Shown: in pieces, positions 1,582-58,148 of the stretch | Layout of the letters: each line of letters begins with the position of its first letter | How positions within the stretch are numbered: the stretch's first letter is position 1 | From: an uncultured delta proteobacterium | Lineage (GTDB): Bacteria; Desulfobacterota; BSN033; UBA1163 | Reading direction: 5' to 3' | DNA length: 64,000 bases | Assembly: GCA_963708295.1 (NCBI GenBank) | Contig: CAVPSJ010000004.1 | Span: forward strand, 1-64,000 | The notes under the pieces: generated by a model | What the model was told of the DNA's origin: nothing | Databases searched by the model: none | The model's input: the letters and a program-made list of their open reading frames with translations, nothing else | Program-made: the position numbers and the translations under genes

Positions 1582-2234
1582 TCAGAGTTTCGTGAGTCCG
1601 GATCGGATGGCATATTTGATGAGCCCCACCTTATCGTGGATATTCAGTTTCTCCATGATGTGGGTCTTGTGGGCTTCGACGGTCTTCTTGCTGATACAAA
1701 GGAGGTTGGAGATCTGAGGGACGGAGTTTCCTTCGGCGATCAATTGTAAAATCTCTCTCTCTCGACCGGAGAGGAGACCCTCAACCCCTTTTTCTCTCCT
1801 ACTTCTGCCTTCCGAATGTATTCTTCAATCACCATTTTCGAGATCGAGGGACTGAGGTAAGAATCGCCCTGGTAGACGGCCCGAAGGGCAGAGGTGAGAT
1901 CGTTCATGGCTGAATCTTTGATCAGGTAGCCGGAAGCGCCCGCTTTCAAGATCTGAAAAATCCACTCCTCATTGTCATACATCGTGAGGACGAGAATCTT
2001 CATGGAGGGGAATCGTCTTTTGATCTCACGGGTGGTTTCGAGTCCGTTGAGTTGCGGCATCCCGATATCCATTAAGATCACGTCGGGGCCGAGTTTCTTT
2101 GCCAATTCGATGGCCTCCAATCCATTGGAGGCTTCTCCGACCACCTCGATATCGCTTTCAGTCCCCAGGAGCGCAGCGATCCCCTGACGGACGATGGTGT
2201 GGTCCTCAGCCAGTAGCACTCGCATCTTTTTCAT
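1582..2234 (-). CDS. NarL/LuxR-family response regulator (apparent frameshift near 1785-1792)
   Basis: Receiver domain RVLLAEDH..DVILMDIGMP. The HTH continues in another frame as LSGREREILQLIAEGNSVPQISNLLCISKKTVEAHKTHIMEKL..., ending at TGA 1582-1584. The shift lies at a CCCC/TTTTTT run. Confidence 0.9.
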
Positions 2235-3693
2235 CTCCCTCTGCCATGCTTTCGTATGGAATCTCGATAGAAATGAGGGTTCCGAAACCGGGCCTTGATT
2301 GTATCTCCAACTGCCCTCCCAGGAGAGAGACCCTCTCCTGAATTCCCACAATGCCAAAGCCCCTTTCCGGGGTCTCCGGGTGCAACACCTTCTCCAGATC
2401 GAAACCCTTGCCATTGTCTTGAATGGAAGCGTAGATTCTCGAATCTCTCTTTACTAAGGAGACCTCAACCCGATCGGCCTGTGCATGTTTTGCAATATTG
2501 TTCAAGGCCTCTTGAACGATCCGGTAGAACGCCGTTTCAATTTGTGGTGAGAGCTTCTCCTCCAGCCCTATGGCCTCGAAGTTGGAGCAAACGTCGAGTC
2601 GGTTTGAAAAATTCTGGATATACCATCTCAATGTGGGGACCAAACCCAGGTCGTCCAGCATGGTGGGCCTGAGGTCCAGCGATAGCTGGCGCATGGCCGT
2701 GAGGATCTGACTCGACAAGGACTTAGCCTCCCCCAATCTCCCCCGGAGGAGGGAAGTTTGTTCGGGGAGGTCTTTATCGATCATTTCTAGGTTGAATTTG
2801 ATCGCATAAAGGGCCTGACCGATTTCGTCGTGAAGTTCCCGTGAAATTCGTCTCCGTTCGTTCTCCTGAGCCTCTATAATTTGGGAGAGATATTTCCGCT
2901 CCGACCTCATCTTTTCCGTCAGGGCCTTAGCCATCTGGTTAAAGGAGTCCGCTAACTGCGTAAATTCGTCGTCACTCTTGAAGCTGATCCTGCTCTTAAA
3001 ATCGCCTCGGCCGAAGAGAGAAGCAGCCTCGATGAAATGTTGGAGTTTCTTGATCACCAACTGATTCAACGCAATGCCAATGACGAAGGTGGAAACCCCG
3101 ATAGCAAAAAACAGAAGGAGCATGTTTTCCTTGAATTCCGCCTGGAGTTGACTTTCGATATTACTGAGGGTGAAATCGGTGACAAGGACTCCGGCAACTT
3201 TCTCTCCCGGGGGATGGCAGGAGAAGCATTCTTTCCGATTATAAATGGGATTAACGTTACGGAAGATTTTTTCTCCTTGGAGAGAAGAGTAAATCACGGT
3301 CTTATTGAGAGCCTTTGTCGTTCCATGGTGGCAAACCTGGCAGGTAGGATCACGGATATCGATAACTCTCCCCACATCCTTGTCATTGATGGAAACGACA
3401 ATCCGGCCGGTTCGGTTGAGGATGAAGATATTCTTCACATCCGGATATTGGCGCACCGCTTCAAGAATAGACTTCATCTCCTCCTTGTTTTTGGATAGCA
3501 TCGAACTTTTCAGAACGTCATTGACGATTTGAGTCAGGTGGGGGCTGACATTTTCCTGGAGATTCGTGATCATTTTTTTCCGGTGGTGAAAGTACTGGAC
3601 GACGAGGAGGATGGCCATGGTGAGCGTAAGCAGACCAATGAGCCCGAGAATGATCTTGAAGCGGAGGCCTTTATAAAACTTCACTTGTCCCAT
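2206..3693 (-). CDS. Membrane sensor histidine kinase (HisKA_3/NarX type) with two periplasmic CxxCH heme motifs and a HAMP domain
   Basis: Two TM segments; CQVCH and CFSCH; HAMP (DEFTQLADSFNQM); ERRRISRELHDEIGQ; DNGKGF. Confidence 0.92.
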   Translation of the reverse strand: MGQVKFYKGLRFKIILGLIGLLTLTMAILLVVQYFHHRKKMITNLQENVSPHLTQIVNDVLKSSMLSKNKEEMKSILEAVRQYPDVKNIFILNRTGRIVVSINDKDVGRVIDIRDPTCQVCHHGTTKALNKTVIYSSLQGEKIFRNVNPIYNRKECFSCHPPGEKVAGVLVTDFTLSNIESQLQAEFKENMLLLFFAIGVSTFVIGIALNQLVIKKLQHFIEAASLFGRGDFKSRISFKSDDEFTQLADSFNQMAKALTEKMRSERKYLSQIIEAQENERRRISRELHDEIGQALYAIKFNLEMIDKDLPEQTSLLRGRLGEAKSLSSQILTAMRQLSLDLRPTMLDDLGLVPTLRWYIQNFSNRLDVCSNFEAIGLEEKLSPQIETAFYRIVQEALNNIAKHAQADRVEVSLVKRDSRIYASIQDNGKGFDLEKVLHPETPERGFGIVGIQERVSLLGGQLEIQSRPGFGTLISIEIPYESMAEGDEKDASATG

Positions 3694-13871: not shown

Positions 13872-14123
13872 CTAACTCTTTATTTTCTTCGGTTGGCACA
13901 CTTCCTCTTTGCCCACTGCCACCCGGCCGCAGGCATCACAGACATAGTTTAGTTTTGTGACCTTCGGCTTGCAGACATGCCTTGGATCACTAACGGTGAT
14001 GCCGCAATACTCACAGGTATAAGCTTTCTTAACCTCCTTAGGGCTACACAGATGGCCTTTCTCAGTGGTTACCAGCCCGCAAGTTTTACACTTATAAACT
14101 TTTGCCGTTGATTTTGTTGCCAT
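13872..14123 (-). CDS. Small Cys-rich protein with three CxxCG-x8-(H/E)xCxP repeats (putative Zn/Fe finger)
   Basis: YKCKTCG..HLCSP, YTCEYCG..HVCKP, YVCDACG..EVCQP; AAAGGAG RBS. Confidence 0.85.
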   Translation of the reverse strand: MATKSTAKVYKCKTCGLVTTEKGHLCSPKEVKKAYTCEYCGITVSDPRHVCKPKVTKLNYVCDACGRVAVGKEEVCQPKKIKS

Positions 14124-16010: not shown

Positions 16011-16361
16011 CTAACAACAGTTTGAACCGCTCGCCTCTTGAGAGCATTCCGTCCGGTTGTTTGGCTTTTCCTCGGAGTCTAGCGTACAGCAACAGGAAGA
16101 TTTTTTTCGGCCCAGCATGGAGTTGATGACTGCAGCGGCGCACCCTACCCCTGAGCGGACACCCAGAGCTCCGAAGGGGCAATTTTGGGCACAGGCACCG
16201 CATTCCATGCAAGCGTCCCTGTTCACAATTTCAATCTTACCGTTTGTCAGACTCAAGACTGCATGGGGGCAGACCAAGAGACACGTTCCGCACCCGACAC
16301 ATTTTTTCTGATCAAGTTCTAAGGTGACCACATCCTTTAGATAGATGAACGGGCTTGTCAT
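16011..16361 (-). CDS. hgcB: Mercury methylation ferredoxin HgcB
   Basis: CVGCGTCLLVCPH, CMECGACAQNCP, GVGCA and a C-terminal CCC...CC; directly downstream of hgcA. Confidence 0.95.
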   Translation of the reverse strand: MTSPFIYLKDVVTLELDQKKCVGCGTCLLVCPHAVLSLTNGKIEIVNRDACMECGACAQNCPFGALGVRSGVGCAAAVINSMLGRKKSSCCCTLDSEEKPNNRTECSQEASGSNCC

Positions 16362-16370
16362 TTGAACTCC

Positions 16371-17519
16371 TCACGCGATAAATTGTGATCCAACCCAGAG
16401 AATCATCCCCGCAATCCCGGCACCGATCTCCAGTGGCAAAGCCCACCGCATTTCTTTTCTCACTCCGGAGAGAGATGTATAGGTGGAGGCTCCCGTGAAG
16501 TTCATTGCCAGATAGGCTGAAAGGGCCGGTATAAGAAGTACCCAGGCCAATATCTCGAAGCCGCCCGCCTTGGTGATCCAGCCACCCCAAAGACAACTGG
16601 CACCCATAAGAGCGAAGACGGCTCCAAGACCTAGGCCCTTGACTGAAAAGGCCCTGCCCGGCAGCCATGGGAGGAGAAGAGGGGTTAAGACCGCACCCGC
16701 CAGAATAGCAGCCAGCAGGGCAAAGACAGCAAATAGACCGTGGCTTAAAGCATTCGTCCAGCCCTCTCTTGATCTCCCGAATAACGCCAGGAGAAAGAAG
16801 AGGAGAATAACCAGGGCGCCGGGTTTTAGGGCTCCCACGAGTTCCATGGGTACCAGTTCCAAGCGCTCCCAAGTCGTAAAAGTCTTCAGCCTCATTTCAG
16901 ACGTCGCCTTCAGTCCGGCATCCAAAAAGACGGGGATATCCTTTGAACGGATGGGACCATAAGTCACCTTGAACCCGGATGATTTCTTAACCAGGTGGGC
17001 CGCCACTCCCGGACCCGACAATTGAGGCAGTATGAGTTCCCGATGTGAAACGATTTGCGCCAGCCTGACTGATTCCATTCGACCGATGAGTTCATTCGTT
17101 CCGAAGGTCCCCTTGCCCGAAGCGCACCAGACATTGATCCCTTGCGTATTCAGAACCAGGATCCACACATCCCGGCTGGGCAACGCTTCCCGGAGTTTGT
17201 CAAAGCTCATCTTATAATTCGCCGTCACTAAGACCGGGGATTTCTGATCAGGTTCACCCAATGCATAAAGGCCGGGATCGACCGTGTAATGCATTCGACC
17301 TATCCCCCAGCGAGCCTTAAACGCTCCCAACCCATCCGCCCAAACAAGGGAGGACGAAACCTGAGGGACAGGGCCAATCGGAGTTTGGATGGAGCCGATG
17401 ATAAAAGGTTGTCTTAGACTCGGAAGGCCCACCTGGGCCCCGCCGCTGCTGGGTCAGCAATTCTTGGGCGCAGATTGACCCTCCTGACCATCCACCCCGC
17501 AATCATCTGTCTCTTTCAT
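16371..17519 (-). CDS. hgcA: Mercury methylation corrinoid protein HgcA, predicted selenoprotein (Sec at codon 22, TGA 17454-17456)
   Basis: Cap helix GINVWCASGKGTFG, PGLYALG, VLVTANYK and C-terminal TMs with NFTGASTYTSLSGV. In-frame extension MKETDDCGVDGQEGQSAPKNC(U)PSSGGAQ from ATG 17519, with a GGGAG RBS. Confidence 0.93.
17421..17445 (-). promoter_or_regulatory. SECIS-like hairpin in hgcA
   Basis: CGG-C-GGGGCCC-AGGT-GGGCCTT-CCG; the G-containing loop begins 19 nt after the UGA. Confidence 0.75.
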
Positions 17520-17546
17520 ATGGTTCTCCCTGCTCCAAAAAAATGA

Positions 17547-17700: not shown

Positions 17701-17768
17701 TTGATAAGATAGAATAATCAGAATTATCAAACAATGCTGATATTAAAGTATTGGAGAGATGTTGTCAA
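17701..17768 (-). promoter_or_regulatory. Sigma-70 promoter and repeat operator of the hgc locus
   Basis: TTGACA (17763-17768), N17, TAATAT (17740-17745). Downstream are a TTGATAA/TTATCAA inverted repeat (17701-17730) and ATCAG/CTGAT repeats. Confidence 0.65.
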
Positions 17769-21660: not shown

Positions 21661-21930
21661 TTATTCGAGTGCCCACTTCTTCAGTCGTTCGTAGTCTGCC
21701 TCTCCGCAGATCCATTTTCCCGTCTTCTGATTGAAAAAAAATGGGACTCCGCCACAATAACCCTTGTCATATTCTTTCATTCGTTTCGCATTGGCTTCGT
21801 TATGCCATACTTCGAGTTTCGCGATGTTGACGTGCTCTTCTTCCTCTAACCTCTCCACGAGAGGAGCCATCTTATGGCAGTGTGGTCACTCTGCCCCGGT
21901 AAATTCAAACAAATAGAATTCTTTTTCCAC
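21661..21930 (-). CDS. Thioredoxin/glutaredoxin-like selenoprotein (UPHC, Sec TGA 21886-21888)
   Basis: GGAGG RBS, GTG start, then EKEFYLFEFTGAE(U)PHCHKMAPLV...GVPFF. The TGA occupies the first Cys of the CxxC. Confidence 0.88.
21850..21864 (-). promoter_or_regulatory. SECIS-like hairpin in the thioredoxin-like gene
   Basis: CCTCTC-GTG-GAGAGG; the loop starts with G, 27 nt after the UGA. Confidence 0.6.
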
Positions 21931-24215: not shown

Positions 24216-24323
24216 ATGAAGACCAAGAAGAAGGTCTCTTTGAACGAGCTTGCCAGACGGCAAGAAGCAAAGTTCTGGGCGATGATGCGGGCTGCTGACC
24301 CTGGCAAGCGATGCCTCAAGTGA
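24216..24323 (+). CDS. Short peptide upstream of radical SAM/SPASM enzyme (candidate RiPP precursor; C-terminal frame uncertain)
   Basis: AAAGGAGGTG RBS at 24201-24210. As read: MKTKKKVSLNELARRQEAKFWAMMRAADPGKRCLK*. With one extra A at 24269-24271 it reads ...QEAKVLGDDAGC-TGA. Confidence 0.6.
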   Translation: MKTKKKVSLNELARRQEAKFWAMMRAADPGKRCLK

Positions 24324-25411
24324 AAAAGCTGAAAGAGCACATGATTGCCGGTCCGGCAATAAAAGATTTCCAATTTTTCATTCAATGGCATCTCACGGAA
24401 CGATGCAACCTCCGATGTCGTCACTGTTATCAAGGAGGGGGTGAAGTTCACGAGATGTCCGTCGGTGAAGTCAAACGTGAGATCGACGGGGCGACCCAGA
24501 TGTTTCAGGCCTGGGAGGAAGAGCACGGCATAAGGGTTTCCCCGTCGATTCACTTTACCGGCGGCGAGCCCTTCCTCTATCGAGGGTTATCGGACGTTAT
24601 CGCCTTCGCCAAGGCAAAGGGTTACGGGGTAGCCATGATGACGAACGGTTGCCTCGCCACAAAAGAAAAAGCCAAAAAAGTATCCCATCTTGGAATATCT
24701 GACATTCAGGTCAGCCTGGAGGGCCCCCCGGAGCTTCATGCTTCGATTCGGGGAAGAGGAAGCTTCCATTCTGCAGCCAAAGGGGTAGAACATCTTACTG
24801 CGGCAGGCTGCCGGGTGAGCGCGAATGTCACTCTCTCCCGCCTCAATTTCGATAAAATAGAAGAAACAGTCGAGGTCGCAAAGGCAATCGGTTTTTATCG
24901 CATTGGGTTCTCGCGAATGGTTCCCTGCGGAAGGGGGAAAGCCTTGCTCACTCAGTTTCTTACCCCCCAAGAGCTCAAATCTGCCTATCAAGGAATCCTC
25001 TCGGCGAACACACCCACTTTTGAGGTGGTTTCAGGAGATCCTTTGGCTGGAACGCTCTCTGAAACGCCCCCCTCCTCTGGTTGTAACCTGACCCTCTCCG
25101 GGTGCAGCGCGGGTTTTTCAGGGGTCACCCTCATCAGTGACGGTTCCGTAATGCCTTGCAGGAGAATCGGCCTGGTTGCTGGAAATCTGAAGAAGAAATC
25201 TCTCCGGGCCATCTGGGCTTCTTCGAGACTCCTCTGGCAGTTAAGGAGAAGGGAGAGTTACAAGGGGAAATGTGGCCGATGTTCTCTCTGGCCCTCGTGC
25301 CGTGGCTGTCGGGCGGTAGCTTATGCCCATTCGTCTGCCCAAGGAAAACCCGATCTTTTTGCCGATGATCCGCAATGCTGGATATCCGATCAACCCCGTT
25401 CAGATTCTTAA
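24311..25411 (+). CDS. Radical SAM/SPASM domain protein (peptide maturase-like)
   Basis: QWHLTERCNLRCRHCYQ, FTGGEP, and SPASM GCSAG..MPC..KCGRC..CRGCRA..DPQCW. Start could be 24311, 24341 or further upstream. Confidence 0.92.
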   Translation: MPQVKKLKEHMIAGPAIKDFQFFIQWHLTERCNLRCRHCYQGGGEVHEMSVGEVKREIDGATQMFQAWEEEHGIRVSPSIHFTGGEPFLYRGLSDVIAFAKAKGYGVAMMTNGCLATKEKAKKVSHLGISDIQVSLEGPPELHASIRGRGSFHSAAKGVEHLTAAGCRVSANVTLSRLNFDKIEETVEVAKAIGFYRIGFSRMVPCGRGKALLTQFLTPQELKSAYQGILSANTPTFEVVSGDPLAGTLSETPPSSGCNLTLSGCSAGFSGVTLISDGSVMPCRRIGLVAGNLKKKSLRAIWASSRLLWQLRRRESYKGKCGRCSLWPSCRGCRAVAYAHSSAQGKPDLFADDPQCWISDQPRSDS

Positions 25412-25477
25412 GGCTTGAAACTGGCTTGCCCTGTCCCGGGGAGACCCGCCATTCAATCACTCAACAGGGGAGAAAAT

Positions 25478-26488
25478 ATGCTCAAAGAAGCGATGCTTTA
25501 TGAGAAAAAGGAAAACGATAAGGTTTCCTGTTTCTTGTGCAGCCACCATTGCCTGATCTCCGATGGAAAATTTGGCATCTGCAACGTCAGGGAGAACAGA
25601 AGAGGTGTTCTGTTTACTCACGCCTATGGAAAACCCATTGCTCAGAGCATTGACCCCATCGAAAAAAAACCTCTCTACCACTTTCTCCCTGGTTCAAAAT
25701 CATTTTCCATCGCCGCCATCGGTTGCAATTTCCAATGCGGTTTCTGCCAGAATTGGCAAATTTCTCAGGTGAAAGAAGCGGCGGTGTTGGGTCTCGACTC
25801 TGAAGAAGTGAAACCTGAGGACGTGGTAAAGCAGGCAAAACAAACGGGTTCAAGAAGTATTTCTTATACCTACTCCGAACCCACTATTTTTTTTGAATAT
25901 GCTTATGAAATTAGTCAATTGGCCAAAAAGGAAGGGCTCTTCAATGTCTTTGTGACCAATGGCTACATGACGAAGGAGATGGTCCAGACGATCTCTCCTT
26001 ACCTTGATGCGGCAAACGTTGACCTGAAATCCTTCCGTGATAATTATTATAGAAAGGTGTGTGGGGGAAGATTGGCTCCGGTACTGAAAAGCATCGAGCA
26101 GATGAAAAAACTGAACATCTGGATCGAGGTCACGACGCTGGTTGTGCCCGGACAAAATGATTCCGAAGAAGAGTTGAAAAAGATCGCCGGTTTCCTCGCT
26201 GGATTGGATCCCTCGATCCCCTGGCATATCAGCCGGTTTTATCCTCAGTATAAGATGGAAGATTTGGAGAGCACCCCCATCGAGACATTAAACCAAGCTT
26301 ACGACATCGGCAAAGACGCCGGGTTACGTTATGTTTATCTGGGTAATGTGGAAAAAGGGAACAATACCTACTGTGATCAATGCCACCAATTGTTGATCGA
26401 GAGATCGGGCTTCTCAATCGAGACCTATCACCTCAAGGAAGGTCGATGTCCTGATTGTAATCGTTCTGTCGATGGAGTGGGAATGTGA
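25478..26488 (+). CDS. amrS: AmmeMemoRadiSam system radical SAM enzyme
   Basis: CFLCSHHC..GICNVR, DPIEKKPLYHF, GCNFQCGFCQNWQISQ, YVYLGNV. Confidence 0.92.
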   Translation: MLKEAMLYEKKENDKVSCFLCSHHCLISDGKFGICNVRENRRGVLFTHAYGKPIAQSIDPIEKKPLYHFLPGSKSFSIAAIGCNFQCGFCQNWQISQVKEAAVLGLDSEEVKPEDVVKQAKQTGSRSISYTYSEPTIFFEYAYEISQLAKKEGLFNVFVTNGYMTKEMVQTISPYLDAANVDLKSFRDNYYRKVCGGRLAPVLKSIEQMKKLNIWIEVTTLVVPGQNDSEEELKKIAGFLAGLDPSIPWHISRFYPQYKMEDLESTPIETLNQAYDIGKDAGLRYVYLGNVEKGNNTYCDQCHQLLIERSGFSIETYHLKEGRCPDCNRSVDGVGM

Positions 26489-33352: not shown

Positions 33353-34333
33353 TCATTCCTCGCCGGGGATAAAGGCAACTTCGGCTTTTTCAGTATCGAA
33401 ATCATTCTTCGGAAATATCAACGAAGTGACGATCGCCAATACAAGCAGTCCGAACACTACACCCAGGGCCAGCTCGATCTGAATCTTATAGAAATCCTGG
33501 ATGAGCATCTTGACGCCAATAAATCCAAGAATGATCGCCAGTGCGTACTTGAGGTAGTGGAACAACTGCATCACACCCGCAAGGGCAAAGTACAATGCCC
33601 GCAACCCCAGAATCGCAAATACGTTAGATGTGTAAACGATGAACAAATCCTGCGATATACCCAGTACCGCCGGGATCGAGTCGAGTGCAAAGACCAGATC
33701 GGTGCTTTCTATCACGACAAGAGTCGCAAGTAACGGTGTCGCGTAAAGCACACCATTGATTCGCACAAGAAACTTTTCTTTATGCAATTCAGTCGAGAGC
33801 GGGAGGTAACGCGACACGAATTTCAGCGCTGGGTTCTTGCCCGGATCAATCTTTCCTTCGATGCCCTTGATCAGCCGGTATGCAGTAAGGATTAGGATCG
33901 CGCCAAAAATGTAGAGCATCCATTTAAAGCCGTGTACCAATTCAATGCCAATGACGATGAGGATCGCTCGCATCACAATTGCGCCGAAAATGCCCCATCG
34001 CAGGACGCGCGGCTGATACATCGGATGGATACCGAAGTAACCGAATACTACCAGAAAAACGAACAGGTTGTCTACGCTGAGCGACTTTTCAACGACATAA
34101 GCGGTGAGATACATCAATGCTTTCTCAGAGCCCAGTTGGTAATACACGAACACATTAAAGAGCAGGGCCGTACCGATCCAGATTGAACTCCAGATTAGCG
34201 CGGATTTGATTGTGACGATACGCGCCTTGCGGTTGACTAAGTAAAGATCAATATAGAGCATAAGGCCAACGGCGACGCTGAAGCCGGCAAACATCATTAA
34301 TTGGTGTGAGGCAGTATCTCCCAATCCAAACAT
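33353..34333 (-). CDS. TerC/Alx family metal (Mn) homeostasis membrane protein
   Basis: EKSLSVDNLFVF, DLVFALDSIPAV, TSNVFAILGLRALYF. Confidence 0.93.
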   Translation of the reverse strand: MFGLGDTASHQLMMFAGFSVAVGLMLYIDLYLVNRKARIVTIKSALIWSSIWIGTALLFNVFVYYQLGSEKALMYLTAYVVEKSLSVDNLFVFLVVFGYFGIHPMYQPRVLRWGIFGAIVMRAILIVIGIELVHGFKWMLYIFGAILILTAYRLIKGIEGKIDPGKNPALKFVSRYLPLSTELHKEKFLVRINGVLYATPLLATLVVIESTDLVFALDSIPAVLGISQDLFIVYTSNVFAILGLRALYFALAGVMQLFHYLKYALAIILGFIGVKMLIQDFYKIQIELALGVVFGLLVLAIVTSLIFPKNDFDTEKAEVAFIPGEE

Positions 34334-34505
34334 AACCTGTCTCTCCTTTTCAAAGTGAAATCAGGGTCCATGGTGAGACTCGATGAGATACTTGAAGCTT
34401 GTTCGGACCATTTCTGGTTAGGCACCCATCGACCTCATACACTTCTGATACCCCAAAGAAGACCCTAAATTACGACGGATTTCATTGAGAGTCCGCATAA
34501 CGTTT

Positions 34506-35313
34506 CTAGATAGGTTTTGTTAGTTTGTCTATCAAATCATCCAACGGCTTTAAGGAAACATCCTCGGTCGAGTCCGACTCATAATAAGCAAAAGGGTTAT
34601 CCAAGTCTCTAATGAGCAAAATTAGAAAAGTCAGTAGGAACGTGATTACTCCGACGAAAAAAAGCGACTCGTAGAACGGATCTATTTTGGAAAAAATGAG
34701 GCCAAGAGTGAGAAGAACCGTCGTTATTTCAGCAATCATATACCCCGATGACACAAAAGAGGTTTCGCGAACTGTATGGATACGCACCAGTATACGCCGG
34801 ATGTTGGTTTGTTCCTGTTTTAACCGTGCGATAAAGGTCGCCTGAGTCAGAGGTTCAAAGGCCGCAAAAGAAGTCACTCAGACCACTCAGTCTTTCCATT
34901 GTATCCTTTGTGCGTTCCTTTTTGTAAAACCAATTCTTTACAGCAATCGTAAATTGATGAAGGTATGTTAAACATTCTTTTGCTACTGGGGCGTTCTTGT
35001 TTTTGTAAATCGTCAGGGCCTCCTCAACGATTGATTCAATGCTGGTTGTCAACTCCCCAGGAAGCCTCTCACTTTCTTTATAATCGGTTAGAATCCCAGA
35101 CAGAAGAAAGCCCATTAGAAACACATTGGCTGCAACGATGCCTGACAAAAGAGGATTCAAAGAGATAATCTCCCATCCAAACCAATGGGCAATAAGCTTA
35201 AAAAAAATAACAACCCCTACGATCAGAGTGACCTGAAGAGCTAATCGGTATTTTTTGTGAATTTTCCTGGGCATCTTTGTTCCCTTTCTCTCTGTAAGAT
35301 TCACTCTTTGCAC
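34506..35313 (-). CDS. DUF4239-like membrane protein (frameshift near 34870)
   Basis: TMs, DYKESERLPG and C-terminal LIRDLDNPF across two overlapping ORFs. Confidence 0.65.
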
Positions 35314-35960
35314 CTTCTTTTCTTATTCATAAGAACAACTCCATAGATTAACAACAGGAGCAGTAACAAGCCTCCAATTGCCACTGGCGGTGTCCAGAAA
35401 TCCTTAGGAGAGGCGCTATAAATACCAAGGACGCCAAAAATAATAAAGACTAATGCGGCGAACCACTTAACAACACGTTCGGGTATTTTCTTTCCCAGAA
35501 CGATGCCAACAATGATGCCTAATGCGTCCGCAATCACCATGCCACACGTTGTACCAAGCCATATTTGAATGATGCTGTCAAATCGGGTGGCTAATGCAAC
35601 GGTCGCAAGTTGGGTCTTATCTCCCATCTCGGCAATGAAAAAGGCAATGGCAACTGTCCAGAAGGGGCTGTACTTAAACTTTTTATCTTCATCCTTGAGT
35701 TCATCCCCTCGTAGGGTCCAAAGGCCAAACAAGATGAAAGATGCGGCCCCCGCGATTTGTATGTATTGGAGAGGCACAATATTTGTGAGGACACTTCCTG
35801 CGGCTACGGCGAGGAGATGGTTAAGAAGTGTTGCTACAAAAACTGCAAACATCACGGTTTGCCAACGGTATCTGGATGCAAAGGCCATGGCGAGTAATTG
35901 GGTCTTATCACCCATTTCAGCCAAAACCACGAATACCAGGGACGTAATATATGCCGTCAT
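35301..35960 (-). CDS. TMEM165/GDT1 (UPF0016) Mn2+/Ca2+ transporter
   Basis: Two EMGDKTQL motifs. Confidence 0.95.
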   Translation of the reverse strand: MTAYITSLVFVVLAEMGDKTQLLAMAFASRYRWQTVMFAVFVATLLNHLLAVAAGSVLTNIVPLQYIQIAGAASFILFGLWTLRGDELKDEDKKFKYSPFWTVAIAFFIAEMGDKTQLATVALATRFDSIIQIWLGTTCGMVIADALGIIVGIVLGKKIPERVVKWFAALVFIIFGVLGIYSASPKDFWTPPVAIGGLLLLLLLIYGVVLMNKKRRCKE

Positions 35961-42101: not shown

Positions 42102-42818
42102 TCACCTCCTTACTGTCGGGCCCTTTTTTTCCTTTTCGTTTAAGATCTCAATCACCATGCCCACTCCTCCGGCAAGAAGAGCAGCCAAAAAGATGTACCA
42201 GTTGCCCTGCAACGCCCATTTGAAGAAAAGAGAGGAAACTCCCGCAACGACCATGATCCCGAAATGACGAACGCTCTTGAGTTGAAACACCAGAAGGCAG
42301 ATGAAGAGGGACGGAAGGGCAAAAGCAAGACCATATTGCGAAATTTTGATGAAAGGACCAAATAGAGCGCCCCCGATAGATCCGATCACCCAGGCGAGAT
42401 GAGAAGTGATTTGGAGCCCGAAGAGGTAAAATGGATTATTTCTCACCTTGGGGAGATTGGAAATGGCCACAGCAAAGGACTCATCTGTCAATTGTGCTGA
42501 AAGGAAGCCCAGGAGAGAAAGACGAGTGTTCTTAAAATAAAGGGAGAGGTTAGAACTCATGAGAAGATGTCTTAAGTTTACAAAAAAGGTAGCCCATACG
42601 ATGGGAAGCCAGGTCATCCCCTTGAAAATCATTTCGATGGCAAGAAATTGACTTGCTCCAGCGTAGACGAGGAGACTCATCAAGCCGGCTTCGGATGGAG
42701 TCATGCCGGCATTTCGAGCCAATAAGCCAAAAGCCACCCCTACCGGGAGGTATCCTAAAACCACGGGGAGGGCATCTTGCACCCCTTCTCTGAATCGGCC
42801 GTTATTCGTCATGAACAA
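42102..42818 (-). CDS. azlC: AzlC branched-chain amino acid exporter
   Basis: YAGASQF, NLRHLLM, LTDESFA. Confidence 0.92.
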   Translation of the reverse strand: MFMTNNGRFREGVQDALPVVLGYLPVGVAFGLLARNAGMTPSEAGLMSLLVYAGASQFLAIEMIFKGMTWLPIVWATFFVNLRHLLMSSNLSLYFKNTRLSLLGFLSAQLTDESFAVAISNLPKVRNNPFYLFGLQITSHLAWVIGSIGGALFGPFIKISQYGLAFALPSLFICLLVFQLKSVRHFGIMVVAGVSSLFFKWALQGNWYIFLAALLAGGVGMVIEILNEKEKKGPTVRR

Positions 42819-42836
42819 ACCCTGATTCCTTACGAA

Positions 42837-44462: not shown

Positions 44463-44874
44463 TATTTGACCAGCCAGATTCCCGAGACAATCAGTGCCGT
44501 GTCGACCACTCTGGGAAGGGTAACCCCTTCCTTGAGAACCAGAACGCTTAGAAGGGCGGTGACCAGAGGGTAGCAGGCTGCGATAGGAACAATGTTGGAG
44601 GTGCCTCCATTTTCAAGGCGCCATAATAAGTCGACATGCCAAGAAAGCCGGCCATCACGCCGCTTGCGCCGAAGAGTAAAATACTCCTCCCGTCTGATTC
44701 AATCAAGGCCTCTCCTTTTCCCGACAGAAAGGTGACCAAAAGAAGGCCCATCATAACGACCGCGCTCCGAATGGTAACGCCGATCAACGGGTCTACTTTT
44801 GCCAAATCTATTTTTCCAAAAATAGGGGTCGCCCCCCATAGCAACGTTGTGACGATCAACAAAAAGACGACCAG
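44463..44874 (-). CDS. EamA-family small transporter (frameshift near 44600; start codon unclear)
   Basis: LLWGATPIFGK..YYGALK, then YPLVTALLSVLVLKEGVT..GTALIVSGIWLVK*. Confidence 0.75.
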
Positions 44875-47856: not shown

Positions 47857-48144
47857 GAACACTTCTCCTTTCCTTTTCTTCCTTCACTCTATTATTCATA
47901 ATCACTTTCTTGAAATCAAGTCATTTTTCTAAATTTATCGTAGAGATATCCAAAAAGCAAGATCATTCCCATCCATTTGACGATAGGGACAATCACCTTT
48001 GCCCAACTGATGCGGCGGCTGCTTTTTCGTAAGTGGCTCCAAATCCGCCGCCGAAAGACGGGAATCGCTCGGGAGAGAAAGGCATTATTTACAGTGTCAC
48101 CCGCCCAAGAAGTTGGTACGATTCAACAGTATAAAGGGGAATTT

Positions 48145-48438
48145 ATGAAAACGGAAATCAGCCTCCTTGACCTGGATGATGAAGAGATGGACGGAAATAT
48201 CTCGGTCATCCTTTACGGGAGAACCTCTGATCATAAGAGGGTAGTCGTGGTAGATCCGACTTACGAGCCTTATTTTTACGTCCTTCCCAAGAATCCGAAC
48301 CAGGCCAGAAAAGAAGTTGCGGCTACCCTTAAAAAGAGCAACATGAAGGTCAAAAGGATTGAAGGGGTAAAGAAAATACTTCTCGGGGAGGAGAGAGAAC
48401 AAACCTCTTCCCGGGAAAACCCCGCGCAACTACAGTGA
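48145..48438 (+). pseudogene. N-terminal fragment of an archaeal-type family B DNA polymerase
   Basis: LLDLD..DG..VILYGRT..KRVVVVDPTYEPYFYVLP..IEGVKK..LG, followed by an abrupt end. Confidence 0.6.
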
Positions 48439-48477
48439 CATCAGCGTACGCAATATCATAGAGACAACCAACCACTA

Positions 48478-48546
48478 AATCCCGTCCCCCCTTTACAAAA
48501 GGGAGCAATTACCCCCTCTTTGGCAAAGAGGGGCGAGGGGAGATTT
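48478..48546. repeat. REP-like double hairpin
   Basis: ccccctttacaaaaggga and cccctctttggcaaagagggg-cgaggggagattt. Confidence 0.65.
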
Positions 48547-48612
48547 CCTGAAACATATGTCTTCTTTATTTATGGACTCCCCGGTAGTCTCAGAACGAAA
48601 TATCCCCTGGAG

Positions 48613-48975
48613 CTAAGGCACCTTCATATCGAATTGATGACATTCGTTACAGAAATTCGCAGAGGCCTTGTGAGCGTGGTGACACTTTCCGCAATCAACC
48701 TCCCCCAAATGCGAGTCATGAGGATTCGGGTCGAGTTTATTTGTTTTATCCGCCACCTTCGGGTAATCTCCATGACACCCCAGGCAGACCGCCCTAGGAA
48801 CATCTTGCTTCGGCGGGCTTTCCATGTGGCAGCCTGAACAGTCCGTTCCCCTGTTCTTGTGTTTTTCTGCCAGGAAAAGGCCCTCGGCGGCCGAGGTCGG
48901 ACAGGAAGGCGAGAAGACGGAAGCCCCCGAGAACCATAAGAAAGCCATCGAATACATCAAAGTCCTCAATTTCAT
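48613..48975 (-). CDS. Tetraheme cytochrome c subunit of flavocytochrome c
   Basis: Signal peptide; CSGCH, CLGCH, CGKCH, CNECH; NPHDSH. Confidence 0.93.
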   Translation of the reverse strand: MKLRTLMYSMAFLWFSGASVFSPSCPTSAAEGLFLAEKHKNRGTDCSGCHMESPPKQDVPRAVCLGCHGDYPKVADKTNKLDPNPHDSHLGEVDCGKCHHAHKASANFCNECHQFDMKVP

Positions 48976-52441: not shown

Positions 52442-55400
52442 TTATATCCCCGCCTCCGTTTGCTTCTTTTCAAACCAGCCATAAATCGAAGGGATGAGCA
52501 ACAGCGTTAGAAGCGTGGAGGTTATCAATCCCCCGACTACGACAGTTGCAAGGGGTTTCTGTATTTCAGAACCCGCTCCACTGGCGTAAAGCATCGGTAT
52601 CAAGCTGAATATGGCTATTGATGCAGTCATGATCACCGGACGCAATCTGTCAGCACTCCCTTTGAGAATGGCCTGTGTGAGGTCTAACCCTTCCTCACTG
52701 CGCAATTGGGAAATGCGGGATACCAGAACGACTCCGTTTAACACGGCCACTCCGAAGAGTACGATAAACCCGACTGAAGCCGGAACCGACAGGTACAAGC
52801 CGGAAATCCAAAGCGAGAACACGCCACCGATCAAAGCGAAAGGCAGGTTGCAAATTACCAGGAGGGCCAGTTTTATCGATCGGAACGTTGCAAAGAGAAG
52901 AAGCAGAATCAATCCGATTGCGATGGGTCCGATGATCATCATTTTAGCCATCGCCCGTTGCTGGTTTTCAAACTGCCCTCCCCAGGTGACGTAATACCCC
53001 GAGGGCAGCTTCACGTTTTCTGCTATCTTCCGTTTCGCTTCTGCGACAAAACCGCCGATGTCTCTTCCTTCTAGGTTGAGCTCGATTCCAATCCTTCGTA
53101 AACCGTCCTCCCTGCTTATCTGTGCCGGTCCTTCCGTGAGAGAGATCTTCGCCAGTTGACTGAGGGGGACGTTCGGACCCCCATCTGTAGGTGCCAGGAT
53201 GTTCCCGATCGTCTCCACTGAATTCCTGTTTTCCTCCGGCAGACGAACCGTAATATCAAAACTCCTGTTCTCTTCATAGAATTTGGATGCGGACTTGCCC
53301 CCTATCGCAATTTCCACGATGTTTTGAATATCGCTTATGTTCAATCCGTAGCGCGCGATTTTGGCCCTGTCTATTTCGATGGTGAGATACGGCTGCCCGG
53401 TCACCTTTTCCGTAAGCAAGTCGGTTGCGCCTTCAATTTTGGCGAGCACCCGAGCGATTTCATCGGATTTCGATTTCAACATCCCCATGTCCTCGCCAAA
53501 AAGTCTCAAAATGATCTGGGCCCGGGTTCCAGCCACGAGCTCATCGATTCTGCACTGAACGGGCTGGCTAAACCCGAATCCTATTCCCGGAATCGTTTCG
53601 ATGGCATCTCTCATCCTGGCCGTCAATTCCTCCCGGTCCAGGCCGTTTTTCCATTCCTTTTTCGGCTTCAACACACCAACGTATCCGGTTTTATCAACAC
53701 CCCGCGTGTCCAGGGCTACCCCGGTTTGTCCTGTTCGCGAGACCACCGTGTCCAATTCCGGGAACGCCTTCAGTTTTTCACCTATGAGTTTGTTTATCTC
53801 CATCGCCTTATCCAGGGAAACACCGGGCAGAAGAGATACGTCCATATCAAAAGCGCCTTCATCCATGGTTGGTATGAATTCCGTTCCCAGCCGCGAGATA
53901 ATGATGAGAGACAAGGCAAGGAAAAGACCCGCAGCGGCAAGGACCAGTTTTCTCTTTTTCATGCTCTTCATGAGCACGGGCAAATACAGATTCTTTAGAC
54001 CTCTCATGATGAAGCTTTCTTTTTCCGGCTGAGGTTTTAGTATGATTGAACACAAGACCGGAATAACGAAAATGGACAATACCAGGGATGAGAGAAGGGC
54101 AATGGCGACCGTCGTCGCAAGCGGTCCGAACATCTTTCCTTCAATCCCTTCCAGGGCAAGAATGGGAATGAACGTAATCGCTATGATCAGCTCACCGAGA
54201 ATGCTCGGCTTTCTTACTTCAAGGACTGCCTTCAGCACGGTAGCAAGGGTTTTAGCCCCATGCCCGCCCTCACTGAGGTGCCTCTGTACGTTCTCCACCT
54301 GAATGATGGTTGCGTCTATGATCATACCGATTGAAATGGCCAACCCGCCAAGAGACATCAAGTTGGCGCTCAATCCGCCGATTCTCATGACAATGAATGT
54401 GGACAGCAAAGAGAGCGGAAGCGCAATCAACACGACAAAGGAAGCCCTGAAGCTTCTGAGCAGGAGATAAAGAACGATCAGCACAAGAAAGGCGCCTTCG
54501 AGCAGCGCTTTGGTGACTGTGGCAACGCTTGCATTCACGATGTCTGAACGATCGTAATAGGGGACGATCCGGATCCCCTTCGGCAGAATATTGTTCTCGT
54601 TTATTTCCTTGACCTTTTTCTTGACCCGTTCGACGACTTCGCGGCTGTTCTCTCCTCGAAGCATCATCACAATTCCGCCGACCGCCTCGTCCTTTCCGTT
54701 GATCAGGGCTGCGCCCTGCCGTACGGCTTGGCCGATCCTTACTTGAGCGACATCCTTCAGGTATGTCGGCGTTCCTCCGTGGGATTTTAGAACGATATTC
54801 TCGATGTCGGCCGTATCCTTAATCAGTCCAACTCCTCGAACGATATACTGGTCCGAGTGTTTTTCCATCACATTTCCTCCGGCATTCTGGTTATTCCTCT
54901 CGATCGCAGCGTATACCTGGTCGACAGAAATGTTATGCCTCAAGAGCCTTTGCGGGAAAACAACGACTTGATATTCTTTGAAATAGCCGCCGTAGGAATT
55001 TACTTCATTGACTCCCGGAACGTTTTTTAGCAACGGGTTGATGGTCCATTCCTGAATCGTCCTCAGATCCGTCAAATACGCTATTCGCTCCTGCGGGTCA
55101 TCGGGCATTCTGCCATCAAGGTTGAACTGATAGATCTCCCCCATTGCTGTCGCGATGGGTCCCATGGTGACCTCTGCGCCTTTGGGAACGTTCTCCTTCG
55201 CTTCGGCAAGTCTCTCAAACACAAGTTGCCGGGCAAAGTAGATATCGACATTGTCTTCAAAGACAATGGTCACCAGGGAAAGGCCGAACTTGGTGACCGA
55301 GCGCATCTGCTTAACCTTGGGCAGCCCGCGCATGGCCATTTCAATGGGATAGGTTACTGAACGCTCAATTTCTATCGCAGAAAGCCCGCTCGCACGGCCT

Positions 55401-55549
55401 ACGACTTCCACCTGGATGTTCGTTACGTCGGGAAAGGCGTCGATGGGGAGCTTCATATAGGAGTAGACTCCAAATACGACCAGGAGAAGCGAGAAAACGA
55501 TAACCGTCCCTTTCTGCCTGAGCACCGATGCAATGATCCTTTCCAACAT
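52442..55549 (-). CDS. czcA: CzcA/CusA heavy-metal efflux RND permease
   Basis: LPIDAFPDVTNIQV, ANLMSLGGLAISIGMIIDA, RLRPVIMTA. Confidence 0.93.
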   Translation of the reverse strand: MLERIIASVLRQKGTVIVFSLLLVVFGVYSYMKLPIDAFPDVTNIQVEVVGRASGLSAIEIERSVTYPIEMAMRGLPKVKQMRSVTKFGLSLVTIVFEDNVDIYFARQLVFERLAEAKENVPKGAEVTMGPIATAMGEIYQFNLDGRMPDDPQERIAYLTDLRTIQEWTINPLLKNVPGVNEVNSYGGYFKEYQVVVFPQRLLRHNISVDQVYAAIERNNQNAGGNVMEKHSDQYIVRGVGLIKDTADIENIVLKSHGGTPTYLKDVAQVRIGQAVRQGAALINGKDEAVGGIVMMLRGENSREVVERVKKKVKEINENNILPKGIRIVPYYDRSDIVNASVATVTKALLEGAFLVLIVLYLLLRSFRASFVVLIALPLSLLSTFIVMRIGGLSANLMSLGGLAISIGMIIDATIIQVENVQRHLSEGGHGAKTLATVLKAVLEVRKPSILGELIIAITFIPILALEGIEGKMFGPLATTVAIALLSSLVLSIFVIPVLCSIILKPQPEKESFIMRGLKNLYLPVLMKSMKKRKLVLAAAGLFLALSLIIISRLGTEFIPTMDEGAFDMDVSLLPGVSLDKAMEINKLIGEKLKAFPELDTVVSRTGQTGVALDTRGVDKTGYVGVLKPKKEWKNGLDREELTARMRDAIETIPGIGFGFSQPVQCRIDELVAGTRAQIILRLFGEDMGMLKSKSDEIARVLAKIEGATDLLTEKVTGQPYLTIEIDRAKIARYGLNISDIQNIVEIAIGGKSASKFYEENRSFDITVRLPEENRNSVETIGNILAPTDGGPNVPLSQLAKISLTEGPAQISREDGLRRIGIELNLEGRDIGGFVAEAKRKIAENVKLPSGYYVTWGGQFENQQRAMAKMMIIGPIAIGLILLLLFATFRSIKLALLVICNLPFALIGGVFSLWISGLYLSVPASVGFIVLFGVAVLNGVVLVSRISQLRSEEGLDLTQAILKGSADRLRPVIMTASIAIFSLIPMLYASGAGSEIQKPLATVVVGGLITSTLLTLLLIPSIYGWFEKKQTEAGI

Positions 55550-55680
55550 AACTATTCCCTCTATCTAATCCTCCCCTTTGGCGATTCTGATTTTCTTTGG
55601 GTCAACAGAAAGTACCCGGCCGCCGCTCGAAGTTCTTCTATTGATGCCCGATCGTTGTAATTGGCTGCATGCCGTACTTT

Positions 55681-56913
55681 CTACTCAGCCTGGAGCGTCT
55701 CCTTCTTGAGCTCCGATTTGAGCGTGAAAACACCCTGGGTGATCACCGCCTCTCCTGCTTTCAGCCCTTCCTTAATCTCGATCCTTTGGCCCGAGGCAGG
55801 GCCCACGGAAACTCGTCGCGCAACGAACCTTTCATCTCCTTCTTGAACAAAGACGTACCTTTCCGAGCCGTCAAGAAAGACCGCCTCTTCGGGAACGGCA
55901 ATGACTTTTCGAGCGCCGGAGTCTTTGCCGGGGTCTATCGAAGCCGTTGCAAACATCCCCAGCTTCAAAAGCCCGCTTGAATTGTCGACTGTCACCCTTG
56001 CCTTTGCCGTGCGGGTCTTTTCGTTGATCATATCTCCCGTATAAGAAATTTTTCCTCTAAAGGCTCTTCCCGGAAACGCGGTGACCGAGACGGTCGCGGC
56101 CATGCCAGATCGTATAGAACCTACGTCTTTTTCAAGTATGTCAATGACTACCCAGACGGTTGACAGATCGGCAACGACAAAGAGGATCTTGTCAGGGCTG
56201 ACAATCTCACCCTGGGAGACGTTTTTTTCTATAACAACGCCGGCTATGGGTGAAGAGATGGGAACGAGGGGGTCCTCGCCGTTCGTTTTTTTCTCCTCAA
56301 ACTGCGATATATTGATGCCGAGAATACGAAACTTCTCCTTCGCAAGGTTGAGGTCTGCTTCAGTCTCTTTTAATTCCTGCCTTGCCTTGAGAACATCCTT
56401 CTCGGGGCACACCCTTTTATCAAAGAGCGTCTCCTCCCGTTTCAGGTTTGTCTGGGCAAGATCGAGCCTGCTCTTTGTCTTTAAGTAATCTGCCCATGCC
56501 ATATCGATCTCCGGGCTGTCAAAATAGGCAAGCGGCTGATGGGATCCCACCCTGTCACCCTGAGAGCCATTGACTTTTACAATCTTGCCTGACATTCTTG
56601 GGCTGATCTTCGAGATTCGGTCGGCATTCAACTCGATAACCGCCGTTGCGAAAATAGGAATTGACAGCTCCTCAGGACTGGCTTTTGCGGTCTTTACGCC
56701 GAATTCTTTCTGCTTTTCCTGAGAAAGAGTGACGACGCCTTCTTCCTTCCTTTTTTTCTCTTCCTTTCCTGCTTTTTCCTCTTTTTGTATTTCTGCGGGT
56801 GAGGCTCTTTTTGTGTCCTTCACATCAAACCCCTTGCCGCCTAAGAAAATGACCCCTGATAAGATCATTATCCCGGCCATGACGATTGGAAAACCTTTTC
56901 GTACCGTTTTCAT
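55681..56913 (-). CDS. CzcB-like membrane fusion protein
   Basis: SPIAGVV, VADLSTVWV, TRTAKARV, GLKAGE. Confidence 0.92.
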   Translation of the reverse strand: MKTVRKGFPIVMAGIMILSGVIFLGGKGFDVKDTKRASPAEIQKEEKAGKEEKKRKEEGVVTLSQEKQKEFGVKTAKASPEELSIPIFATAVIELNADRISKISPRMSGKIVKVNGSQGDRVGSHQPLAYFDSPEIDMAWADYLKTKSRLDLAQTNLKREETLFDKRVCPEKDVLKARQELKETEADLNLAKEKFRILGINISQFEEKKTNGEDPLVPISSPIAGVVIEKNVSQGEIVSPDKILFVVADLSTVWVVIDILEKDVGSIRSGMAATVSVTAFPGRAFRGKISYTGDMINEKTRTAKARVTVDNSSGLLKLGMFATASIDPGKDSGARKVIAVPEEAVFLDGSERYVFVQEGDERFVARRVSVGPASGQRIEIKEGLKAGEAVITQGVFTLKSELKKETLQAE

Positions 56914-58148
56914 CTCAGGTCACCTCCAATTATTCTCTTTATTCCATTGATAGAAGACTGTGCCCTAAGCAGGGCGTCTACGTATGCGAACTGGATATCC
57001 AGGGCATCTTTTTGAGCCAGCCTGACGTCATAGAAACCGACCTTTCCTTCCCTGAAGGCCAGGTTGAGTAAGTCAAGATTCTCGAGCGCTTTGTTGAGCA
57101 TCTCCTTCTTGTAGAGCTCCACTTCTTTATAGGAGGAAACCAGGTTAGCGTAGCCCTCCTCTATTTCCCTTTCGACGATTCTCTTAACGTTTGGATATCT
57201 TATGGTTGCCTGTTCCGATCTGATTTTGGCTATTTTCCTTTCCGCCTGCTTTTGGTCAATGAGCGGAAGAGGTATCGAAACGATCAGCCCTCCTGTATTC
57301 CTCAGTTCGTCCCTCTGATAAAACGCCGAAACTGTGACGTTTGGAATAGCTTCCTTCTTTGCCAGGTGGATTGCCGAACGGGTCTTTTCTTCCTCGATTT
57401 GCGAAGCCTTGAGGTCGGGTCGGTTGGCAAGAGCGCTTTCTTTGAGTCCTTCCTTATCCCGCAACCCGAGCACCTCACTTAATATCTCTCCCTCGATTTT
57501 GAAATCGACATCAGGCTTGTGGCCCATGATATCCTGGAGAATTAAGATAGATTCTTTGTATTCCCTCTCAGCTGAAAGAAGTTCTGTTCTTGCCTTGCCC
57601 AATTCCAGCTCAGCGATGTTGATTTCAAGGCCTGATACGTCGCCAGCCTTGAGCTTTATCCTGGTGAATTCGAGAAGTTCTTCCTTTAACCTCACCGCCT
57701 CTTTTCTCAATTCCACTCTTCGCTTTGAAGCGAGCGCCCTTGCAAAAGCGTTTCTGGCTTCAGAAGTGATAATCCTTTCCTTGTCTCTTATCTCAAGGCT
57801 AACTCTCTGGATCTCTTTTCCAGCTACGTCGATCCTGAAACCTCTCTGCCCTGCGATCTCGAACTCCTGGGAAAGCGTTACCCCGTAGTCCGTAAAGGTA
57901 TGCTGAACGTCACCCCCTTTGCCTTTTGCGACGACATTACTTTCCACTGTGGGGTTTGCAATCAAAGGGAGCCTCGCTTTCTGCAGCTGGGCCTTCGCAA
58001 TTTCTTCCTCAAGTCTTAGCGACCTAAGATCCGGATTTTGTCGAAGGGTGTACTCGACGATTTCATCCAGGGTCGCCGATTGAGTTACGGAGGAAAAACA
58101 AACATAGAAAACGATAACTAATAGAAAAATGAACGCACTTCTCATCAT
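56910..58148 (-). CDS. CzcC/TolC outer membrane factor
   Basis: NPDL, SQEFEIAGQR, RPDL, SIPLPL. Confidence 0.9.
   Translation of the reverse strand: MMRSAFIFLLVIVFYVCFSSVTQSATLDEIVEYTLRQNPDLRSLRLEEEIAKAQLQKARLPLIANPTVESNVVAKGKGGDVQHTFTDYGVTLSQEFEIAGQRGFRIDVAGKEIQRVSLEIRDKERIITSEARNAFARALASKRRVELRKEAVRLKEELLEFTRIKLKAGDVSGLEINIAELELGKARTELLSAEREYKESILILQDIMGHKPDVDFKIEGEILSEVLGLRDKEGLKESALANRPDLKASQIEEEKTRSAIHLAKKEAIPNVTVSAFYQRDELRNTGGLIVSIPLPLIDQKQAERKIAKIRSEQATIRYPNVKRIVEREIEEGYANLVSSYKEVELYKKEMLNKALENLDLLNLAFREGKVGFYDVRLAQKDALDIQFAYVDALLRAQSSINGIKRIIGGDLR

Follow-up and report, generated by a model that had tools for sequence, protein, structure and literature searches.

A 64,000-nucleotide stretch of DNA from an uncultured delta-proteobacterium (positions 1 to 64,000 of contig CAVPSJ010000004.1, assembly GCA_963708295.1; hereafter, the window) carries the mercury-methylation genes hgcA and hgcB, and codon 22 of hgcA is an in-frame UGA which, with a probability that we put at about 0.88, encodes selenocysteine (Sec). 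The observations that carry this reading are the conservation of the in-frame UGA among relatives, a covarying hairpin that disappears along with the UGA, homologues with Cys in its place, the identity of the gene and its start site. The host is a Syntrophaceae-like Thermodesulfobacteriota bacterium, whose hgcAB operon is, judging from the sequence, functional. Haft and Gwadz (preprint 10.1101/2022.07.06.499078; J Bacteriol 2023) have described most HgcA proteins as selenoproteins with an N-terminal Cys-Sec (CU) pair, and the first-pass annotation of the window correctly credited the CU and Cys-Cys (CC) extensions of HgcA to them.

The hgcAB pair and its in-frame UGA

All hgcAB features lie on the minus strand of the window. 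Read from the ATG at 17519..17517, hgcA spans 16371..17519 and encodes 382 residues with Sec at position 22, the codon-22 TGA being the sole interruption of the frame before the terminal TGA at 16373..16371. This TGA (17456..17454) directly follows the TGC of Cys21 (17459..17457), and the putative Cys21-Sec22 pair (17454..17459) stands in the local motif N-C-U-P-S; the translation places a further Cys, Cys7, in the N-terminal tail (17499..17501). A Shine-Dalgarno (SD) sequence, GGGAG, is seen at 17526..17530, 6 nt 5' of the ATG. Open reading frame (ORF) callers start the gene exactly 29 codons downstream of that ATG, at GTG 17432, whereas the first-pass annotation had proposed the ATG at 17519 with its ribosome-binding site (RBS), an in-frame extension of 29 amino acids and Cys-TGA at codons 21-22, with which our coordinates agree.

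Families were called with the NCBIfam profiles NF040863 (HgcA, cut-off 275 bits) and NF040864 (HgcB, cut-off 99 bits), plus Pfam, and the scores bear out the hgcAB identity proposed at first pass; the NVWCASGK cap helix and the adjacent HgcB noted then lie on the minus strand. HgcA scored 453.9 bits, exceeding the cut-off across the full profile, C-terminal membrane part included (residues 51-380 cover profile positions 1-324 of 325). The cap helix (17112..17135; residues 129-136) contains Cys132, equivalent to Cys93 in ND132 numbering; NVWCASGK is one of the six cap-helix motifs accepted in the high-stringency definition of Hg-MATE (PMC10087281), to which the helix with its conserved Cys conforms. 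The earlier remark that ASGK is rarer than AAGK in this helix holds for 80 species-level loci (11 with ASGK, 63 with AAGK) but not for the 120 nearest protein clusters, of which 92 have ASGK. The only Pfam domains found on hgcAB were a CdhD-type corrinoid domain and Fer4 domains.

The second gene, hgcB (16011..16361), encodes 116 residues with two 4Fe-4S motifs, matched by Pfam Fer4, and scored 119.1 bits on NF040864. Further criteria for HgcB are a C(M/I)ECGA motif, a C-terminal Cys and a gene that shares its contig with hgcA (PMC10087281), and the window gene shows all of these: it has CMECGA, lies next to hgcA and ends in ...NCC, with the Cys-Cys codons at 16019..16014. At its GVGx site, where Haft and Gwadz saw occasional Sec, the window protein has Cys (16142..16140), as do all 74 alignable relatives. 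The hgcB start lies 9 nt past the hgcA stop, a distance repeated in 36 of 76 related loci, and hgcB is in the hgcA frame in 48 of the 76; both spacing and frame are consistent with tight translational coupling. Read-through of the terminal hgcA TGA into the in-frame hgcB was considered and rejected: the corresponding stop shows no preference for TGA among the 76 related loci (TAA in 43, TGA in 17 and TAG in 16).

To place codon 22 among relatives, one genome per species was scanned, yielding 599 matching stretches, 585 of them confirmed, and the best 80 were used as loci; by their record titles, all except L011, L064 and L047 are delta-proteobacterial or Desulfobacterota-type metagenome-assembled genomes. 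The site was located by walking upstream in frame from a conserved QPF motif. A TGA was found at the homologous position in 71 of the 80 loci, in 68 at identical spacing and in 3 one codon off, and it is preceded by Cys in 63 of these 71. The nine loci without TGA comprise five with Cys-Cys at or beside the site, three with Cys-Arg, and L056, which has no such motif. Conservation of Cys or Sec at this site in homologues, which the first-pass annotation had named as a point to check, is therefore found in the form of 71 TGA loci, 63 of them CU, and of Cys-Cys in five loci and in the protein cluster P0061. In the remaining eight TGA loci (L015, L016, L020, L031, L037, L041, L046 and L011) the hairpin is present and the preceding context is R, S, Q, L or G-U, or C-G-U, which argues that a vicinal Cys before Sec is not obligatory in HgcA. 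Within the clade of the window the local motif is mostly [S/G/N/T]-C-U-P, and U-G-P occurs only in L020 among the 80 loci.

The coding status of the region 5' of the TGA rests on the openness of its frame, on an ATG with an RBS and on the Cys read-through forms. All of the 71 loci keep this frame open over 22 codons or more (median 37), whereas only 37% of off-frames, across the two other frames, reach 20 codons. An in-frame ATG lies upstream of the TGA in 68 of the 71 loci, preceded in 53 of these 68 by GGAG, GAGG or AGGA. Eighteen relatives have the ATG at the same distance from the TGA as the window, exactly 21 codons upstream; their proteins begin M-D/K/N-E, and a GGAG-type site is conserved ahead of the ATG (aGGAGa 7-9 nt before it in the rows listed). 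The tblastn matches of relatives extend from HgcA residue 1 across the TGA, and two of the 120 nearest protein clusters are full length: P0061, whose alignment starts at residue 1 and shows Cys-Cys, and P0069, where the site reads Cys-Ser. The tails of 29 of 68 relatives have one or more additional Cys, and in 16 of 68 one falls within the first 9 residues.

A quick, unrooted maximum-likelihood tree was built from 80 HgcA cores, L052 being too short for inclusion. It joins the window to L003 and L006 (SH-like approximate likelihood ratio test (SH-aLRT) support 100), and this group belongs to a clade of 19 rows (SH-aLRT 96) that all have the TGA. By parsimony, the nine rows without TGA need seven changes, at least four of them forced by well-supported branches. 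These rows are scattered singly and the hairpin is half-decayed in L018 and L019, so the direction of change is probably loss of the TGA. In these two sister loci (L018:3058 and L019:1667), AGA (Arg) replaces the TGA while the hairpin keeps four of its five pairs, as if the Sec codon had been lost recently and the hairpin were now decaying. Of the flanking genes, the pyruvate dehydrogenase E2 gene and a small helix-turn-helix (HTH) gene next to hgcAB recur in 10 and 11 of the 80 loci, nearest relatives only.

A covarying hairpin downstream of the UGA

Downstream of the UGA, the window contains the hairpin GGGGCCC-AGGU-GGGCCUU (17441..17424, extending to 17445..17421 with one bulged C), which resembles a Sec insertion sequence (SECIS). 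Its core is a stem of 5 bp (17439..17435 with 17430..17426) closed by the loop AGGU (17434..17431), beyond which come two G-U pairs and then three pairs past the bulged C. The 5-bp hairpin begins 14 nt past the TGA, the distance from UGA to loop is 19 nt and the minimum free energy (MFE) is -16.5 kcal/mol. The same hairpin at SECIS-like spacing had been noted at first pass; the 19 nt to the loop and the covarying stem described below uphold it.

An alignment was made of the TGA and the 63 nt after it, for the window together with the 71 TGA loci (72 rows, 69 of them distinct). The consensus is GGCUC-AG[G/U]U-GAGCC, with the stem in columns 18-22 and 27-31, and RNAalifold gives exactly that stem; 99.7% of stem cells across the 72 rows are paired. 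Compensatory changes affect four of the five stem pairs (11 cells) and include U-A to C-G in seven rows, the window among them, G-C to A-U, and C-G to U-A, the GGCCC/GGGCC of the window being one compensated variant. None of 500 column shuffles matched the observed alignment on any of five measures, and when the partner columns were slid as a control, pairing fell to 31-61%. The covariation is hard to explain by constraint on the protein, because it couples a synonymous change of an Ala codon with a Ser/Gly replacement. A longer, 7-pair stem was rejected as the conserved unit, since 89% of its cells are paired and the outer two pairs are present in only 43 of 69 rows.

The hairpin disappears with the UGA. 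All five pairs are present at fixed spacing in 68 of 69 TGA rows, versus none of the nine rows that lack TGA at the homologous place, where two to four pairs are kept; when shifts of up to 9 nt either way were allowed, two of these nine loci (L019 and L057) found five pairs elsewhere. In the Cys forms, the conserved A-Q-[V/L]-S peptide for which the stem codes fades as well.

According to the bacterial SECIS (bSECIS) consensus model (the bSECISearch model as given in PMC13188914, Fig. 2 legend), the loop has 3-9 nt and the upper stem 4-16 bp, a G stands within the first two loop positions and is followed by G or U, the loop lies 16-37 nt from the UGA, and the MFE is -7.5 kcal/mol or lower. The hairpin of the window agrees with the model on all four constraints (4-nt loop AGGU, 7 bp of which 5 are conserved, 19 nt, -16.5 kcal/mol), and all 72 rows have G as the second base of the loop. 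It thus shares with the model a coding-region stem-loop just past the UGA, the loop size, the G at loop position 2 and the spacing; the match is one of model constraints, with SelB binding putative and no Rfam family to which the element belongs.

Competing readings of the UGA and the rest of the window

Several observations count against Sec at codon 22. Folded singly, 66 nt of the window sequence are unremarkable (z = -0.70, with 49 of 200 shuffles as good); the figures are z = -1.79 and 12 of 200 for 30 nt, and z = -2.15 and 1 of 200 for 18 nt, so that the fold of the window sequence by itself is weak evidence. Rfam has no family for the hairpin and gave nothing at E up to 10 around the UGA; searched with the whole window, it returned no match at gathering score and only chance-level matches in the hgcA 5' region. 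Among the 50 ORFs of at least 150 residues in the window there is no selA, selB or selD, and in the same 64 kb ARAGORN found no tRNA and Rfam no tRNA-Sec. The 20 codons 5' of the TGA show no third-position excess of change (0.481, 0.432 and 0.471). The pentapeptide PCUGP is absent, the window having NCUPS, and the site admits Cys-Arg (three loci), Cys-Ser (P0069), no motif at all (L056) and, in eight loci, a Sec codon lacking the preceding Cys. Furthermore, HgcA of ND132 made in Escherichia coli is reported to be active in lysates; its size of 37 kDa and the C93 numbering indicate that this active protein is presumably a short form lacking the tail. Full-text literature searches returned no experimental proof of Sec in any HgcA.

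Part of this evidence would also fit a true stop at the TGA, with a 21-codon leader peptide, a hairpin acting as a regulatory or coupling element, and HgcA starting at GTG 17432. This GTG lies inside the hairpin loop; the corresponding loop codon is TTG in 30, GTG in 27 and ATG in 1 of 68 loci, that is, start-capable in 58, and in 118 of the 120 nearest protein clusters the annotated start follows the TGA. The missing third-position signal upstream and the in vitro activity of the short ND132 protein point the same way. A separate leader, however, would not require a shared frame, but all 71 of 71 TGAs share that of hgcA; the Cys-Cys forms join tail to core in five loci and in P0061; and the hairpin is gone where the TGA is replaced. 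The loop codon cannot initiate in 10 of the 68 loci, a core SD precedes it in 27 of 68 as against 53 of 68 for the upstream ATG, and none is found ahead of GTG 17432 in the window. Since the loop codon is sometimes a non-start codon and the SD favours the upstream ATG, the short hgcA gene models are best seen as an annotation artefact, which is how Haft and Gwadz explain the HgcA database entries truncated at the UGA, and we regard a true stop as very unlikely. Slightly less improbable, though still a minor contender, is the production of both forms, Sec-HgcA with selenium and, without it, a short HgcA initiated at the loop GTG or TTG of the opened hairpin. The start-capable loop codon and the apparent catalytic competence of the short form suit such an arrangement; on the other side stand the lack of an SD and of a start codon in the cases just given, and the bSECIS model itself demands G[G/U]U in the loop, which explains the codon without any role in initiation.

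An erroneous or accidental TGA is still less credible, to the point of being negligible. TGA and TGC are one base apart, and a frameshifted response regulator elsewhere in the window indicates that the assembly or the genome is not flawless, so that a TGC or TGT misread in sequencing or assembly, or a nonsense mutation of recent date that turned the 5' part into a pseudo-extension, might be envisaged; the same TGA nevertheless recurs in 71 of 80 independent species-level genomes and in every member of the 19-row clade of the window, with the hairpin intact. There is hardly any likelihood either that the whole genome reads UGA as an ordinary amino acid, in the manner of codes 4 or 25. Such a reassignment could draw on two in-frame TGAs and nothing more, whereas 19 of 43 family-supported ORFs in the window stop at TGA with normal lengths and hgcA itself ends at a TGA 9 nt before hgcB. 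TGA is in fact the commonest ordinary stop in the window, and recoding at codon 22 must therefore be site-specific. Site-specific decoding as Sec from the upstream ATG is what the family scores, comparative genomics, Cys homologues and covarying SECIS-like hairpin support: hgcA has the in-frame UGA after Cys, the N-terminal extension with its own start and the Cys homologues that characterize selenoprotein HgcA.

Whether the genome decodes Sec was approached through a read-through screen of the window, in which 110 ORFs crossing one TGA were listed and 107 were scanned against Pfam, the hgcA and hgcB ORFs and the gene pair at 42105-44189 lying outside the scan. A domain spans the TGA in one ORF only, a thioredoxin-fold gene with a U-P-H-C motif (21661..21930, minus strand) that would encode 89 residues (21930..21664), with U15 at the TGA 21888..21886 inside the Pfam Thioredoxin match. 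A hairpin, CCUCUC-GUG-GAGAGG (21864..21850, minus strand; 6 bp, loop GUG; MFE -7.6 kcal/mol), lies 27 nt past the UGA. Of its 120 nearest protein clusters, 58 exceed 75 residues in length, and a pattern match finds CxxC at the site in 47 of these 58; the other 62 have 75 residues or fewer and start at a Met six residues past the TGA. The nearest database homologues are annotated as 69-residue truncations. UxxC thioredoxin is a listed selenoprotein type, and the gene is likely a second selenoprotein, of known type and not part of hgcAB, from which we argue that the genome decodes Sec.

Other features of the window are peripheral to this question. About 220 nt upstream of the hgcA ATG, a consensus scan found a promoter-like site, TTGACA-17 nt-TAATAT (17740..17768, minus strand; 10 of 12 matches); the upstream region gave three such sites versus 1.4 expected, and the site is no more than a match to a pattern. 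An 83-residue Cys-rich protein that carries three CxxC...C-P-K repeats and lies three genes downstream of hgcB (13872..14123, minus strand) gave only sub-threshold zinc-ribbon-like Pfam matches and stands beside hgcAB in none of the 80 loci. The frameshifted response regulator mentioned above is of NarL/LuxR type (1585..2414, minus strand); its receiver and GerE HTH domains are in different frames, with the shift near an A5G4 run at ~1795-1775, the result of either a frameshift mutation or an assembly error. On the plus strand at 24216..26488, a 35-residue ORF that has a strong RBS overlaps the beginning of a radical S-adenosylmethionine (SAM)/SPASM gene (24311..25411), after which comes an AmmeMemoRadiSam-type radical SAM gene (25415..26488); the arrangement resembles a cassette for peptide modification. 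Just upstream of the gene at 24311, a 'GCUP' was rejected as a Sec site and put down to chance, because its frame has no start codon and the 35-residue ORF with the RBS occupies another frame. At 47977..48939 on the plus strand, a 153-residue ORF (47977-48438) is followed by an in-frame TGA and 132 codons unlike protein; no Pfam or NCBIfam family matched the ORF, and neither supports a likeness to a polymerase fragment. At 44465..44680 (minus strand), an EamA transporter domain can be read in its C-terminal part alone, the upstream frame being unlike protein, and this gene may be truncated or frameshifted. Metal-handling genes at 33353..35960 and 52442..58148 encode a TerC/Alx protein, a GDT1-type cation antiporter and a CzcCBA-type resistance-nodulation-division (RND) efflux system for heavy metals.

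Relation to known systems and possible selenium dependence

Selenoprotein HgcA is already published and part of NCBI annotation rules, and NF040863 is listed with the motif CU in PMC13188914. The window protein shares with the proteins of Haft and Gwadz an extended N-terminus that begins ahead of the start annotated formerly, one in-frame UGA directly after Cys, occasional Cys-Cys homologues and UGA-truncated database entries. It differs in having N-C-U-P-S, and its clade mostly [S/G/N/T]-C-U-P, where they give P-C-U-G-P as invariant in 20 of 20 sequences, a descriptive motif rather than a curated definition. The available portion of the preprint text on selenoprotein HgcA makes no mention of a hairpin or of covariation. 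What is added here to the published claim is the covarying hairpin lost with the UGA, plus the clade-specific C-U-P motif; neither is a new kind of system, and the C-U-P variant may already be present in the supplementary alignment of the preprint or in the journal version.

Terminal vicinal pairs are also found in the Cys-Cys tail of HgcB, as CU or CC in the SAO proteins (SaoL, SaoB and SaoC) and in MerT-type selenoproteins, all of which handle mercury or organometallic compounds; the HgcA pair differs by standing at the N-terminus of the corrinoid protein itself, and metal binding by it is putative. With the large (gamma) subunit of CFeSP, the Wood-Ljungdahl pathway's corrinoid iron-sulfur protein (PDB 2h9a, 4c1n and 4djd), HgcA shares the corrinoid-binding domain (residues 79-199, E = 1.7e-6), but CFeSP has no cap-helix Cys, membrane domain or Sec tail, and the window HgcA falls far under the CFeSP family cut-off (65.7 versus 306 bits).

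In HgcA, the cap-helix Cys is an axial ligand of the bound cobalamin, the cofactor is reduced by HgcB, SAM is reported as the methyl donor, and the Cys pair of the flexible HgcB tail is a proposed carrier of Hg(II) or methylmercury (PMC7305189, PMC11588087). In the mechanism that we propose, hgcA would be translated from ATG 17519, and UGA 22 would be decoded as Sec by SelB and tRNA-Sec, recruited via the hairpin 14-19 nt downstream. The 382-residue product would consist of an N-terminal tail, the corrinoid-binding domain, the Cys-on cap helix and the membrane domain; the tail, with Cys7 and Cys21-Sec22, is presumed to be cytosolic like the adjoining corrinoid domain. HgcB, predicted to be translationally coupled 9 nt downstream, would act as a dicluster ferredoxin with its own C-terminal Cys-Cys. 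The thiol-selenol pair on the flexible HgcA tail may bind Hg(II) or methylmercury and pass it to or from the methyl-corrinoid. Such a high-affinity mercury-binding arm is suggested by analogy with the role proposed for the HgcB Cys pair, and Haft and Gwadz also suggest a mercury-binding role for the Cys-Sec pair of HgcA.

On this reading full-length HgcA would need selenium, and selenium supply may be linked to methylmercury formation, the link drawn at first pass. A stronger version, in which selenium gates methylmercury production in a large clade, is tentative and, on balance, unlikely: no Sec-tRNA would mean no HgcA and no HgcB, as the ribosome would halt after a 21-residue peptide; the Cys7/Cys21-Sec22 tail would be the Hg(II) acceptor, feeding Hg(II) to the methyl-corrinoid; and the repeated change of Sec to Cys or Arg with decay of the hairpin would mark lineages freed of selenium dependence. 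Selenium control is weakened by the reported activity of ND132 HgcA made in E. coli, and a strict requirement for the tail is doubtful given that same, presumably short, protein and the tolerance of Arg and Ser at the site. HgcA is the marker for methylmercury production, and most databases keep UGA-truncated versions of its gene; correct gene models also matter for expression constructs, the purified ND132 enzyme appearing to be tail-less. Should the tail prove necessary in vivo, methylmercury formation would be subject to a so far overlooked control by selenium availability.

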